DNA of 32,824 bases from an uncultured Alphaproteobacteria bacterium (GTDB taxonomy: Bacteria > Pseudomonadota > Alphaproteobacteria > Micavibrionales > SZUA-601): positions 1 through 32,824 of the forward strand of contig CBFGSX010000003.1 of assembly GCA_965651535.1 (NCBI GenBank), given 5' to 3'. Below, piece by piece: positions 6,086 through 30,360 of this stretch (position 1 is its first letter; each line of letters begins with the position of its first letter). The position numbers and the translations under genes were made by a program. Under the pieces are notes generated by a model. The model ran no database searches, was not told the DNA's origin, and was given only the letters and a program-made list of their open reading frames with translations.

Positions 6086-9288
<3,203 letters not shown>

Positions 9289-9384
9289 TCAGATCGTTTT
9301 TGAAGACTAAAATGGGTATAAAATCATAGCCTTTTGCCCCTTTTTACACAAGGGGAAAGACCGAAAAAATACAGGAAAAAATGC

Positions 9385-10953
9385 TTATTTTATAAGCTTT
9401 TGGCGGCGGCGCTCGACCGAGGAGCCAATCCCGAGGCTTTCACGGTATTTCGTGACCGTGCGGCGGGCCACGGGGATCGATTCTTCCTTCAAAAGCGAGA
9501 CAATTTCATCGTCCGATAAAACGGCTTTGGGGTCTTCCTTGTCGATCAATTCCTGGATGCGCGCCTTGATCGCGTTGCTGGCCACGGCCATGCCGCCCGC
9601 CGCGCCGCCGACGCCCGACGAGAAGAAATACTTCAATTCGAAAATCCCGCGCGGCGTCGTCATGTATTTGCCCGTGGTGACGCGGCTCACGGTGCTTTCA
9701 TGCACGCCGACGACTTCCGCAACTTCGCGCAAGACCATCGGCCGGAGGAACGACACGCCATACAGGAAAAACGCTTCCTGCTGGCGGATAATTTCGGCGG
9801 CGACCTTGACGATGGTTTGCGCGCGCTGATCCATCGCCTTGATGAGGAACTGCGCGCCCTGATATTTGTCGATCAGGAATTGTTTTTCCTCTTTCTTGAC
9901 GCCCTTGGTGTGGATCATCGCGGCATAGCGCTGGTTGATCAGAACTTTCGGCAGCGTGTCGGGATTCAATTCCACGATCCACGTATCCGGGTTGTCGCGG
10001 TTGGTGTTCTTGCGCATGAGAATATCGGGAATAAGCGTCTGGGCCACGTCATGCGAGAATTTCGCGCCGGGCTTGGGATCGGTGCGGCGCAACGCCACCA
10101 GCATATCGCGCAGCTCGGCCTCAGTGACGCCGCATTTCTTTTGCAGCGCCTTGTAGTCGTGTTTTTCCAAAAGCTGGATATTGGCGAGGAATACCGACAT
10201 TTTCGGCGTCATCAACCCCAGCTCGCGCAGCTGCAACTCCATGCATTGCGCCAGATTGACGGCGAAAATCCCCGCCGGTTCCAATTGCTGCAATCGCGCC
10301 AGCACCAGCTCGACATCCGACAGCTCGCATTCCAGCTGTTTGGCGGTCTCGTTCATGTTGCCGCGGAAATATCCTGCCTCGTCCAGGCCCTCCATCAGCG
10401 CAAAGGCGATCATCTTGTCCTGCGGGCTGTGGAATTCGACCTGGATCTGTTTCGTCAAATGGTCGAACAGACTGTCTTCGCCGCGCAGGCGCGATTCAAA
10501 GGAAAACTCGGGATCGTCGAAACTATGCGCGCCGGAACTGCCTTGAAAATTCGGCATGGTGTCGAATGTATGCGCCGCCTCTGTGCCGTTGAAGACGTTT
10601 TCGGTATCGAATTCCAGACGGTCGTCGCTTGGCCCTTCGTGATGGGATTGCGCGTCCGGCGCTTCATAGCCGTTGAGCGCGTTGAATTCCTTTTCCTTTT
10701 CCGACGGGATATTCTCGGTGTTCGGCGCGGTGCCGCCCGCCTCCTCGCTGCGTTCGAGGAACGGGTTGGTCTGCATCTCGGCCTCGATCATCGCCTCGAG
10801 CTCAAGGTTGTTCATCTGCAGCAGGGCAATGGCCTGTTGCAGGCTGGGGGTCATCACCAGCGACTGAACCTGTTTGAGCGCCAGATACGGCCCGACAGGG
10901 CCGGAAGGCGGGGCGGCGGAGGGGGAGCGATTCTGGCGTGGTGCGTTCTTCAT
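9385..10953 (-). CDS. rpoN: RNA polymerase sigma-54 factor
   Basis: Region I LVMTPSLQQAIALLQM, HESTVSR helix-turn-helix, RpoN box ARRTVTKYRE. Confidence 0.97.
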   Translation of the reverse strand: MKNAPRQNRSPSAAPPSGPVGPYLALKQVQSLVMTPSLQQAIALLQMNNLELEAMIEAEMQTNPFLERSEEAGGTAPNTENIPSEKEKEFNALNGYEAPDAQSHHEGPSDDRLEFDTENVFNGTEAAHTFDTMPNFQGSSGAHSFDDPEFSFESRLRGEDSLFDHLTKQIQVEFHSPQDKMIAFALMEGLDEAGYFRGNMNETAKQLECELSDVELVLARLQQLEPAGIFAVNLAQCMELQLRELGLMTPKMSVFLANIQLLEKHDYKALQKKCGVTEAELRDMLVALRRTDPKPGAKFSHDVAQTLIPDILMRKNTNRDNPDTWIVELNPDTLPKVLINQRYAAMIHTKGVKKEEKQFLIDKYQGAQFLIKAMDQRAQTIVKVAAEIIRQQEAFFLYGVSFLRPMVLREVAEVVGVHESTVSRVTTGKYMTTPRGIFELKYFFSSGVGGAAGGMAVASNAIKARIQELIDKEDPKAVLSDDEIVSLLKEESIPVARRTVTKYRESLGIGSSVERRRQKLIK

Positions 10954-10975
10954 GCTTCCAGCCTACCGGAATCAG

Positions 10976-10991
10976 GTTAAAACTTCATAAA
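10976..10991 (-). promoter_or_regulatory. CtrA-like box upstream of rpoN
   Basis: Minus strand TTTA-TGAAGTT-TTAAC versus consensus TTAA-N7-TTAAC (1 mismatch). Confidence 0.45.
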
Positions 10992-10992
10992 A

Positions 10993-11008
10993 TGGCATGA
11001 AAATTGCA
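10993..11008 (+). promoter_or_regulatory. Sigma-54 (-24/-12) promoter or binding site, divergent from rpoN
   Basis: TGGCATGAAAATTGCA matches TGGCAC-N5-TTGCW with exact GG-N10-GC spacing. Confidence 0.75.
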
Positions 11009-11018
11009 TGAAATCAGA

Positions 11019-11074
11019 GGCAGAGCCTCCTCCTCACACGCTCAAAGCCCCGCCCGAAACAGGCGGGGCTTTTT
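11019..11074 (+). ncRNA. Candidate sigma54-dependent small RNA with an anti-SD motif
   Basis: Lies between the -24/-12 site and a hairpin with T-tract; contains CCTCCTCCTC at 11026-11035. Confidence 0.45.
11044..11074. terminator. Rho-independent terminator, possibly bidirectional
   Basis: AAAGCCCCGCCCGAAACAGGCGGGGCTTTTT. The longer T-tract is on the + strand; it also follows the stop of the minus-strand MipA-family gene. Confidence 0.85.
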
Positions 11075-11077
11075 CCA

Positions 11078-11908
11078 TCAGAACTGATAACCCAGATTCG
11101 TCCCGACAAACAACGACGTATCGTCTTGCGAGATCGGCCCATCGGAGGCATCGCCCGTCAACATATCAAGACGCGCGCGACCCTGCACGAAAGCGCCCTG
11201 CGTAAAGTTATGCTGGATCACGCCACCAAGGCTGTAGCGGTAGAACCCGCCGCCATCGACATCATAGGCCGCAAGACCGCTTGCCCCGCTTTGCGCGCCG
11301 GTGACGCCGAAGAATTCCTGAATGTAATCCTCGCCGCCGAACGAAGCCGTCGCCTCGATCATGCCTTTCCAATGCGGCGCAAGCGGCGCAGCGTATCCGA
11401 CGCCGATCTCGCCCTTATAGCTGCCGAATTCGTTGAACAAATCGACGCCCAACTGGCCGCGCACGAAAAACGGCCCCGGATGCCACGCGGCGAACACGCC
11501 GCCCAAAGCCGTCCAGTCAATATCGCCCATGCCGGCGATGTCGCCTTTCGCGTCGCGGCCGCCGTCATAAGTCAGATTGACCCCGGCGGAGAAATTCTGA
11601 TCGGCCAGCAATTTTACGCCCAAGCCCTCGTAAGGCACCATCATCGCCTCGCGGTCGACGACCAGAAAGCCGCGCTGTTTGTATTCCAGATGAATGGCCG
11701 GGGTGAAGATCGCGCCGTAATCATCCGCGCCCATGTAATCCGGCCCATAGCCGACACCTGCCGCGACCGTCAGCTCCAGATCCTGCGGCAGGCTGGGCGT
11801 GCCGGGGGTGACATCGTGCTGACCCAAGGCGGGGTAACGTGTCTGGGCCAGCGCGGGCATGGCCGCCACGGTGAACAGACAGGCAAAAAGGATCGAAGAA
11901 AAGCGCAT
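11078..11908 (-). CDS. MipA/OmpV family outer-membrane protein
   Basis: Signal peptide (PALA), PDYMGADDY, Y.QEFFGV, ASGLAAYD, DASDGPI, C-terminal GYQF beta-signal. Confidence 0.88.
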   Translation of the reverse strand: MRFSSILFACLFTVAAMPALAQTRYPALGQHDVTPGTPSLPQDLELTVAAGVGYGPDYMGADDYGAIFTPAIHLEYKQRGFLVVDREAMMVPYEGLGVKLLADQNFSAGVNLTYDGGRDAKGDIAGMGDIDWTALGGVFAAWHPGPFFVRGQLGVDLFNEFGSYKGEIGVGYAAPLAPHWKGMIEATASFGGEDYIQEFFGVTGAQSGASGLAAYDVDGGGFYRYSLGGVIQHNFTQGAFVQGRARLDMLTGDASDGPISQDDTSLFVGTNLGYQF

Positions 11909-12104
11909 CACAAACCTCGTTTTGATTTCATTTGCCGTGATTCTAACACCCTGGGATTCGCTTGTGAATCCCTTTTCAAAAATACATAATATGACGCGGG
12001 GGGGCAGGCAAGCCGCCTGCCGTTTCAGGGAGTGTGTTGACCTTTCAAGGCGTCTGTCCGATAAAAGGGCGGCACACCCACTTACATTTTATTCGAGGTT
12101 TCTC

Positions 12105-28695: not shown

Positions 28696-30360
28696 ATGCC
28701 CGAAGAGATCCTCGACGGCATTCCCCTGTCGCCCGGCATCGCCATCGGCGAGGGCTTTATGCTCGAAACCATCGCCGTCGAAGCGCCGTTTTACCCGATC
28801 GCGCCCGAAGCCGTGGCGCTTGAGCTGGAACGCTTCGACAAGGCCTGCCAGAAAGCGCACAAGCAAATCACGAAGCTCCAGACAAAGGCCGAGACGCTGC
28901 CCGCCGAGGCCGCCGAAGACATTGTTATGCTGTTGGATGTGCATATCGCGCTGGTAGCAGAGAACTCACGCCTGACCAAAGGCGTCAAGGAGCGTATCAA
29001 GAGCCACCGCATCAACGCCGAACAAGCGGTGCAACAGGAAATTGCGCATTTGGCCAAGCCTTTCGACGAGATGGAGGATAATTATCTCGCCGGGCGCATC
29101 AAGGATATCGAAGATGTCGGCCGCCGTCTTGTCCGTAACCTGCTCGAGCGCAAATACGTCGCGCTCAAAGCCGTGCCGATGGGCGGCGTCGTCATCTCCG
29201 AGGAGATCACACCTGCCGATACCGCCTTTATGAACCCCGACAAGATCGGCGGCTTTGTCACGATGGTCGGCGGCCGCCAGAGCCACACCGCCATTCTGGC
29301 ACGCTCCTTGCGCCTTCCGGCGGTGGCGGGTATTCCGAATATGCCACGCCATTTATATGACGACAGCTTCGTCGTCATCGACGGCACCGAAGGCCGCGTC
29401 ATCATCAATCCGACGCACGAGACGCTGGCCTTTTATAAAAAGAAGCGCGAATCCGATCAGCAATATCAGGCACGGCTGCAAGCGCGCGCCGCGGAACCCG
29501 CCGTCACGCGCGATGGCACGCGCATTCAGGTCGAGGCGAATTTTTCTTCCCCGGACGATCTCGAACGCATTTTGAAATCCGGCGCCGAAGGCATCGGCCT
29601 TGTGCGCACGGAATTCCTGTTCATCGGACGCGACGACATTCCTTCGGCGCAGGAACAATACGACACGCTGGCCGAGATCGTGCGCGCCATGGACGGCAAG
29701 CCGCTGACGATCCGCACCTTGGATGTCGGCGGCGACAAAATTTCGCCCGCCATTCAGGGCCGCATCCTGCAAGAACAAAACCCGGCTTTGGGATTGCGCG
29801 GCATCCGCCTTAGCCTCGCCATGCCGGATATCACGATCGCGCAATGCACCGCGCTGCTGCGCGTCGCGGCTTTGGGCCATGTCCGCATCCTGTTGCCGAT
29901 GATCACCACGGTCGAGGAGATCCGCCAGTTCCGCCAGATTTTTGCCGAGACCGCTACAAGGCTGCAGGCCGAAAAAGTTCCGATCGGCCCGGTGGACGGC
30001 ATCGGCGTGATGATCGAAACCCCGGCCACGGCCATCGTGCCGGATCTTTTCGCACAAGAGGCCGACTTTCTGTCCATCGGCACGAACGACCTTGTGCAAT
30101 ACACGCTGGCCGTCGATCGCGGCAACGAGGCCGTCGCGAGTATCTTCGATTCCGGCCATCCGGCCATCCGCAAACTGATCGAACAGACGGTCGCCGCCGG
30201 ACGCAATCGCGGCATTCCCGTCACCGTCTGCGGCGAGATCGCCGGAGACCCCAATTTTACCGATTTCCTGCTCAAAGCGGGGGTGCGCGCCCTGTCCATG
30301 TCCGCCGGTGCCATTCCGCTTATTAAGGAACGGGTGCGCAATATCGCGCTAAAAGGTTGA
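28696..30360 (+). CDS. ptsI: PTS enzyme I (no N-terminal GAF domain)
   Basis: SPGIAIG, GGRQSHTAILARS (phospho-His), GIGLVRTEF, RTLDVGGDK, NPALGLRGIR, SIGTNDLVQY, VCGE. Start uncertain (28651-28696). Confidence 0.93.
   Translation: MPEEILDGIPLSPGIAIGEGFMLETIAVEAPFYPIAPEAVALELERFDKACQKAHKQITKLQTKAETLPAEAAEDIVMLLDVHIALVAENSRLTKGVKERIKSHRINAEQAVQQEIAHLAKPFDEMEDNYLAGRIKDIEDVGRRLVRNLLERKYVALKAVPMGGVVISEEITPADTAFMNPDKIGGFVTMVGGRQSHTAILARSLRLPAVAGIPNMPRHLYDDSFVVIDGTEGRVIINPTHETLAFYKKKRESDQQYQARLQARAAEPAVTRDGTRIQVEANFSSPDDLERILKSGAEGIGLVRTEFLFIGRDDIPSAQEQYDTLAEIVRAMDGKPLTIRTLDVGGDKISPAIQGRILQEQNPALGLRGIRLSLAMPDITIAQCTALLRVAALGHVRILLPMITTVEEIRQFRQIFAETATRLQAEKVPIGPVDGIGVMIETPATAIVPDLFAQEADFLSIGTNDLVQYTLAVDRGNEAVASIFDSGHPAIRKLIEQTVAAGRNRGIPVTVCGEIAGDPNFTDFLLKAGVRALSMSAGAIPLIKERVRNIALKG

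Follow-up and report, generated by a model that had tools for sequence, protein, structure and literature searches.

The intergenic gap upstream of rpoN in the window (that is, the whole 32.8-kb stretch of DNA analyzed here) contains a canonical sigma-54-type -24/-12 box, TGGCATGAAAATTGCA (10993-11008, + strand), which points away from rpoN and recurs at a similar place and in the same orientation in related genomes. On balance we favor the proposal that this box is an operator for the sigma-54 holoenzyme, placed back-to-back with the rpoN promoter, through which rpoN would be negatively autoregulated. In the genus to which the genome belongs the box also heads a genus-specific mini transcription unit, which is plausible as a second output of the same site. 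An autoregulatory box of this kind would be a clean and testable candidate operator, in that it is canonical, lies at a fixed distance and was kept through gene rearrangements; moreover, a related box upstream of rpoN is possibly widespread in Alphaproteobacteria, as the survey of such loci suggests.

Contents of the rpoN-mipA gap

The window corresponds to contig C3 in a metagenome-assembled genome of 1.40 Mb that is 89.5% complete. Its rpoN gene (9385-10953, - strand) encodes a sigma-54 protein of 522 aa with the Pfam domains Sigma54_AID, Sigma54_CBD and Sigma54_DBD and a score of 583 bits against the NCBIfam model for RNA polymerase factor sigma-54; the nearest named relatives of this protein are alphaproteobacterial. 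Upstream of rpoN, and likewise on the - strand, lies a gene for a MipA-family outer-membrane protein (11078-11911; Pfam MipA, E = 8e-40), the orientation of the two genes being absent from an earlier sequence-only reading of this DNA. The rpoN start (10953) and the mipA stop (11078) are 124 bp apart, and no sequence difference was seen within this gap (10954-11077) across four DNA contig runs covering 10700-11400. The wider neighborhood (6859-11911) has gyrB downstream of rpoN and mipA upstream; lptB, hpf and ptsN are not neighbors of rpoN here.

The sigma-54 box has its GG at 10994-10995 and its GC at 11006-11007, and the start codon of rpoN is 39 nt away. When scored against TGGCAC-N5-TTGCW with the GG and GC 10 nt apart, which we take to be the sigma-54 consensus, it fits 11 of the 12 scored positions, as do the boxes that precede flagellar genes elsewhere in the genome. 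The IUPAC pattern TGGCAYGNNNNTTGCW has a single match in the window against a mean of 0.02 in 100 dinucleotide shuffles of it, only two of which contained the pattern at all. Genome-wide, 16 boxes score at least 11/12 as against a mean of 13.4 in simulated sequence, and hence match quality by itself proves nothing. A second sigma-54-like word in the window, TGGCACGCTCCTTGCG (29297-29312, + strand), has one pattern mismatch, is situated inside a 577-codon open frame and is probably a chance occurrence.

Next to the sigma-54 box, 1 nt away from it and 22 nt upstream of the rpoN ATG, is a tentative CtrA-like box (10976-10991, - strand), which reads TTTA-N7-TTAAC on the rpoN strand and is assigned by what we take to be the CtrA consensus. 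Most genomes of the family have a TTxx-N7-TTAAx word in the interval from the sigma-54 box to the start of rpoN (the window, and loci L011-L013 and L016-L018), and its presence at rpoN suggests that the gene may be under cell-cycle control, as class II flagellar genes are. The genome has 14 full TTAA-N7-TTAA sites, where about six are expected, and two overlapping copies stand upstream of an ORF whose beginning resembles DnaN by eye.

Sigma-54-dependent transcription usually starts about 12 nt after the -12 GC, which for this box predicts a start at 11019 and a hypothetical transcript of 56 nt (11019-11074, + strand) ending in a T-run. This stretch contains an anti-Shine-Dalgarno-like pyrimidine tract, CCTCCTCCTC (11026-11035, + strand), and a GC hairpin, GCCCCGCC/cgaaaca/GGCGGGGC (11047-11069), followed on the + strand by TTTTT (11070-11074). 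Together with a preceding AAA, the 8-bp GC stem, the 7-nt loop and the TTTTT constitute a bidirectional intrinsic terminator (11044-11074, both strands), whose T-run is T5 on the + strand versus T3 on the - strand. Given that the hairpin starts 3 nt past the mipA stop codon (11078-11080), it can also terminate mipA, a point that the earlier reading had likewise left out.

The sequence-only reading had described a near-perfect -24/-12 element divergent from rpoN, followed on the same strand by a stretch of about 55 nt with CCTCC, a GC hairpin and a T-tract. The element is confirmed by its 11/12 match and by the 0.02 matches expected per window, the stretch corresponds to 11019-11074, and box, tract, hairpin and T-run were all recovered in place. 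Its view that the gap holds no credible protein gene likewise stands, in that the sole ORF (11008-11205, 65 aa) has no Pfam family. A leader peptide or small protein was rejected on the grounds that this family-less ORF begins within the -12 element, ahead of where transcription is predicted to start.

Conservation of the box at rpoN loci

We compared the rpoN upstream regions of all ten species genomes that the family comprises, four of which belong to genus g1 (G000, the genome of the window, and G001, G002 and G003). The box is conserved in these relatives, five of the ten genomes having a divergent-strand match of 11-12/12 at a distance of 39-52 nt to the start of rpoN. Besides TGGCATGAAAATTGCA in G000, these are TGGCACGCTTGTTGCA in G001 (12/12; 39 nt from a GTG start, with a gene for an HTH_3 protein upstream), TGGAACGGTTTTTGCA in G002 (11/12; 52 nt, with a gene for an unknown protein upstream), and, in genus g5, TGGCATGTTTATTGCA in G007 (11/12; 41 nt) and TGGCACATATTTTGCA in G009 (11/12; 43 nt), both of which have lptB as the upstream gene. 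No box was found in the rpoN upstream regions of G003, G004 and G005, and the 9/12 words that are all G006 and G008 offer are regarded as doubtful, the former overlapping a TTAA-type box and the latter sitting within the upstream ORF. As G003, G004, G005 and G008 have no good box, autoregulation by this route would be dispensable. Outside the family a divergent 10/12 word is present in one of 20 order-level genomes, and co-oriented boxes are found upstream of rpoN at none of the 30 loci from the ten family and 20 order-level genomes. In G001 the box of the flagellin promoter (L223, C8:13983-13998) is the identical 16-mer to the one beside rpoN, the identity extending even to the four free spacer positions.

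The gap DNA aligns with no genome but its own; the box nonetheless recurs. A similarity search with the gap in 40 relatives yielded merely hairpin look-alikes at other places, and scans of the collections with RpoN retrieved relatives of at most 52% identity and no additional members of the genus. Since the upstream gene varies among mipA and the genes for an HTH_3 protein, an unknown protein and LptB, the box travels with rpoN. Furthermore, the four genomes of genus g1 have four different genes upstream of rpoN, indicating repeated rearrangement of the junction, yet three of the four retain the box. By these sequence comparisons, the sigma-54 box near rpoN is under selection.

The gene upstream is oriented towards rpoN in each of the five strong-box genomes. 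This arrangement accords with an alternative that we consider unlikely, in which the box counters transcription from the upstream gene, with either bound polymerase or a short divergent transcript blocking or pairing with read-through and thereby insulating rpoN, which would then be driven by its own promoter alone. A divergent transcript would have full complementarity to read-through RNA, the weak T3 run on the mipA side of the hairpin makes such read-through plausible, and the lptB-rpoN genomes would be covered too. However, this account is purely inferential, and it explains the conserved distance to the rpoN start no better than does direct occlusion of the promoter.

To place the box in a wider context we turned to collections of metagenomes and genomes, in which 140 rpoN loci with 40-50% RpoN identity, largely of the Hyphomicrobiales type, were usable, and surveyed these for GG-N10-GC boxes of at least 10/12 within 250 nt upstream of the conserved RpoN N-terminal region. 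A divergent-strand box is present in 66 of the 140, a count that is not a statistic because the loci are mutually related; a co-oriented box is present in four, and a control stretch of 250 nt inside rpoN gave none in the 140. Of the 66 boxes, 63 have the form TGGTCCG-N-TTCTTGCT and three are of the GGCA type. The former group shares a near-invariant 16-mer, TGGTCCGATTCTTGCT, on the strand opposite rpoN (63 of 140 loci, in the range L046-L205; for example L191, L175, L186 and L156), and in the loci that were inspected the complement of the box directly follows a CTATA -10-like word and lies 15-25 nt before the rpoN ATG. The box in the window differs from this TGGTCC-type version in being canonical (TGGCAT...TTGCA) and in lying 39 nt from the start beside the CtrA-like box, not right after a CTATA word; in addition, rpoN has here left lptB. 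We infer that TGGTCCGATTCTTGCT is a sigma-54 site, but its invariance even at normally free positions means that it may be something else. On these sequences, a box with sigma-54 spacing whose -24 end is nearest rpoN seems to be common in alphaproteobacterial rpoN control regions. Exact-string literature searches for the TGGTCCGATTCTTGCT-type box found no paper.

These comparisons also bear on whether anything in the gap is functional, as against a chance sigma-54-like word that happens to stand beside an incidental pyrimidine run and an ordinary mipA terminator. The genome-wide count of boxes set against simulated sequence and the placement of the hairpin, which is that of a normal mipA terminator, are in keeping with such an explanation. 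We nevertheless hold it to be very improbable, given that boxes of equal strand and distance occur in half of the family genomes though the surrounding DNA is unaligned, that the expectation for the window is so low, and that the distant-locus control was empty.

Proposed autoregulation of rpoN and the sigma-54 regulon

No activator is needed for the sigma-54 holoenzyme to form a stable closed complex. We propose that sigma-54 RNA polymerase would bind 10993-11008, and that the upstream edge of the bound holoenzyme would then extend as far as the CtrA-like box and the region of the rpoN promoter, the overlap with the promoter being deduced from the distance to the start codon and from the tentative CtrA-like motif. 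Rising levels of sigma-54 would in this manner lower the transcription of rpoN. In genus g1 the site is additionally framed as a complete mini transcription unit, in which the box is followed by 37 nt with the pyrimidine tract and then by a terminator; were FlbD to activate this site, an RNA of about 56 nt could be released as a by-product or second output.

The box stands next to rpoN and is conserved with it both in the family and in the distant loci, as would befit an operator. Furthermore, neither a GC hairpin plus T-run nor any conserved sequence follows the box in the lptB-rpoN spacers of G007 and G009. Since these two genomes retain the box in the absence of an RNA body, and since comparable boxes recur among the distant loci, the conserved function of the box is most likely that of an autoregulatory operator of rpoN. 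A pure operator leaves two features of G000 and G001 unexplained, namely the near-identical offset of the tract and the equal 37-nt spacing of the terminator.

The rpoN1 gene of R. etli and the rpoN2 gene of B. japonicum are reportedly subject to negative autoregulation. The sequence-only reading had likewise appealed to negative autoregulation of rpoN in rhizobia, which is indeed reported for Rhizobium leguminosarum (PMC3538637), and a 2025 survey remarks that rpoN genes in alpha-, beta- and gamma-proteobacteria have sigma-54 promoter motifs, 'implying autoregulation' (PMC12316311). The common alphaproteobacterial rpoN box fits these reports, and TGGTCCGATTCTTGCT is a candidate operator for the rhizobial case; no operator is named in the literature on rpoN autoregulation that we found, and the original rhizobial papers may already describe one. 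The likeness of the present locus to the rhizobial systems lies in a sigma-54-type box immediately upstream of rpoN, through which repression would here be exerted.

The genome encodes both sigma-54, from the rpoN gene of the window, and candidates for its enhancer-binding activators. Nine of the 16 boxes of at least 11/12 are intergenic and located 24-71 nt upstream of ORFs, of which four have flagellar Pfam domains (flagellin, two rod proteins and FlgI), one an SLT domain and one DUF1150, while three are without a family. On this evidence the recognizable sigma-54 regulon of the 1.4-Mb genome looks largely flagellar; its loci (L234-L242) are distributed over contigs C7, C54, C39, C2, C64, C33 and C31. 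Among six matches to PF00158, the sigma-54 interaction domain, in the 89.5%-complete assembly, the only clear ones are FlbD (a FlbD-like protein scoring 741 bits against the NF050807 cut-off of 750) and NtrX (659 bits), the other four being weak matches in ClpB-type and other AAA proteins. FlbD is the sole clear sigma-54 activator found, and were the rpoN-side box to fire, this would accordingly most likely be FlbD-dependent and part of the flagellar program. A sigma-54/FlbD flagellar program of this kind is described in Caulobacter (PMC3930126). No consistent enhancer motif emerged from searches for exact shared inverted repeats among the nine intergenic box regions, for mismatch-tolerant 10- and 12-mers among such regions, or for per-promoter inverted repeats and GGCA/TGCC-type dyads, nor from footprinting of six orthologous promoter sets.

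The candidate short RNA

In silico, the + strand combines a promoter box, an unpaired seed and an 8-bp GC stem with a U5 run, which is the architecture of a small RNA gene. A 58-nt + strand RNA is predicted to fold with -25.1 kcal/mol (z = -3.9), none of 200 shuffles being as stable, and the fold places the strong terminator after a tract that is essentially unpaired or lies within a weak loop. A conserved 5' hairpin presenting the tract was considered and rejected, as the 4-bp stem of the window's RNA is not reproduced in G001.

The architecture is partly shared within the genus. In both G000 and G001 exactly 37 nt separate TTGCAT from the GC stem, and the tract of G001, CTTCTTCCTCCT, is 12 nt long and has its end as far from the box as that of CCTCCTCCTC, the shared CCTCCT being shifted by 1 nt. 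The terminator sequences and the upstream genes of the two loci are unrelated. Such a tract with CCTCCT has a probability of 0.0014 in a random 37-mer, and the box-plus-tract pattern is found only at these two loci within the ten family genomes. G002 keeps the box and the terminator with a spacer of 33 nt and has CCUAACCACC in place of the CCTCC tract, while G003 is without the box, so that tract and architecture are common to two of the four genus genomes; the hairpins of three genomes do not align column by column.

These observations raise the possibility, which we entertain only tentatively, that the main function of the locus is to produce a stand-alone trans-acting sRNA. This RNA would be activated by FlbD, run for about 56 nt from near 11019 to the T-run, and act as a late-flagellar riboregulator whose unpaired 5' CCUCCUCCUC tract pairs with the Shine-Dalgarno regions of its targets, probably with Hfq. 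The consensus match of the box, which equals that of flagellar-gene boxes, the better T-run on the + strand, the predicted fold, the parallel arrangement in G001 with its unrelated terminator and different upstream gene, the low chance probability of the tract and its confinement to two places in the family all speak for this RNA, as does the presence of hfq in the genome. However, the motif is restricted to half of the genus genomes, G007 and G009 outside g1 retain the box without the RNA body, and the terminators directly follow the stop codon of the upstream gene and may simply be that gene's terminator. Nor was an enhancer motif, an Rfam family or a clear ribosome-site target found. The proposal of the sequence-only reading, in which an sRNA gene would act as the non-coding arm of the sigma-54 regulon, is supported in part: its box, CCTCC tract and terminator are present and echoed in G001, which shares the CCTCCT, but G002 has no CCTCC and G003 no box. 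The autorepression site for rpoN, which that reading had offered alongside the sRNA, is favored by the comparison of family and distant loci, whereas the sRNA part is limited to G000 and G001.

The two functions could also be joined. In such a two-way switch, which we regard as rather doubtful, one box would shut rpoN and, when fired by FlbD late in flagellar assembly, would release the 56-nt RNA, whose 16S-like CCUCCUCCUC end would mask ribosome-binding sites. If this were true, a single stretch of 16 bp would control both sigma-54 levels and a post-transcriptional output. A real short RNA at this site would be a sigma-54-dependent sRNA physically coupled, in a reduced genome, to the promoter of the sigma factor itself; our literature search found no report of a sigma-54-dependent sRNA coupled to the rpoN promoter.

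Qrr, GlmY, CrcZ and NrsZ are known sigma-54-dependent sRNAs, and the candidate, if transcribed, would resemble them in being short, non-coding and controlled by sigma-54 with an enhancer-binding protein, while having no sequence or Rfam relation to them. Campylobacter jejuni has an RpoN-dependent flagellar sRNA, CJnc230 (FlmE), which is reported to be processed from the flgE mRNA (PMC11187230), a precedent in favor of the stand-alone sRNA; in contrast, the candidate here would be a primary 56-nt transcript back-to-back with rpoN. The Cuckoo/alpha-r14 RNAs (CcsR, NfeR1) are described as having two to four adjacent hairpins with CCUCCUCCC in each loop (PMC4615179). The candidate, also alphaproteobacterial, resembles them in its CCUCCUCC-type anti-Shine-Dalgarno word, but has one CCUCCUCCUC tract in an essentially unpaired 5' stretch and one terminator hairpin; membership was rejected because the multi-hairpin loop motif that defines the family is missing, and there is no Rfam match at the gathering score.

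At the gathering score, Rfam models matched nothing in the whole window but a tRNA (206-276), and the candidate sRNA proposed earlier thus has no Rfam family. With permissive settings, 10850-11200 yielded 16 matches, all below threshold and led by Yfr1 with 23 bits against a cut-off of 38, and seven related loci gave no match. A crude seed-based target scan of the genome listed 375 sites, the top matches of which are mostly inside genes and include no clear ribosome-site target. As a separate observation, the flagellin leader (G000 C7:1272-1330) has 58 nt between its sigma-54 box and the ATG and carries an inverted repeat, CTCCTTT...AATGGAG, in which the anti-Shine-Dalgarno word would pair with the gene's own ribosome-binding site. 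This leader resembles the translationally controlled flagellin leaders of Caulobacter.
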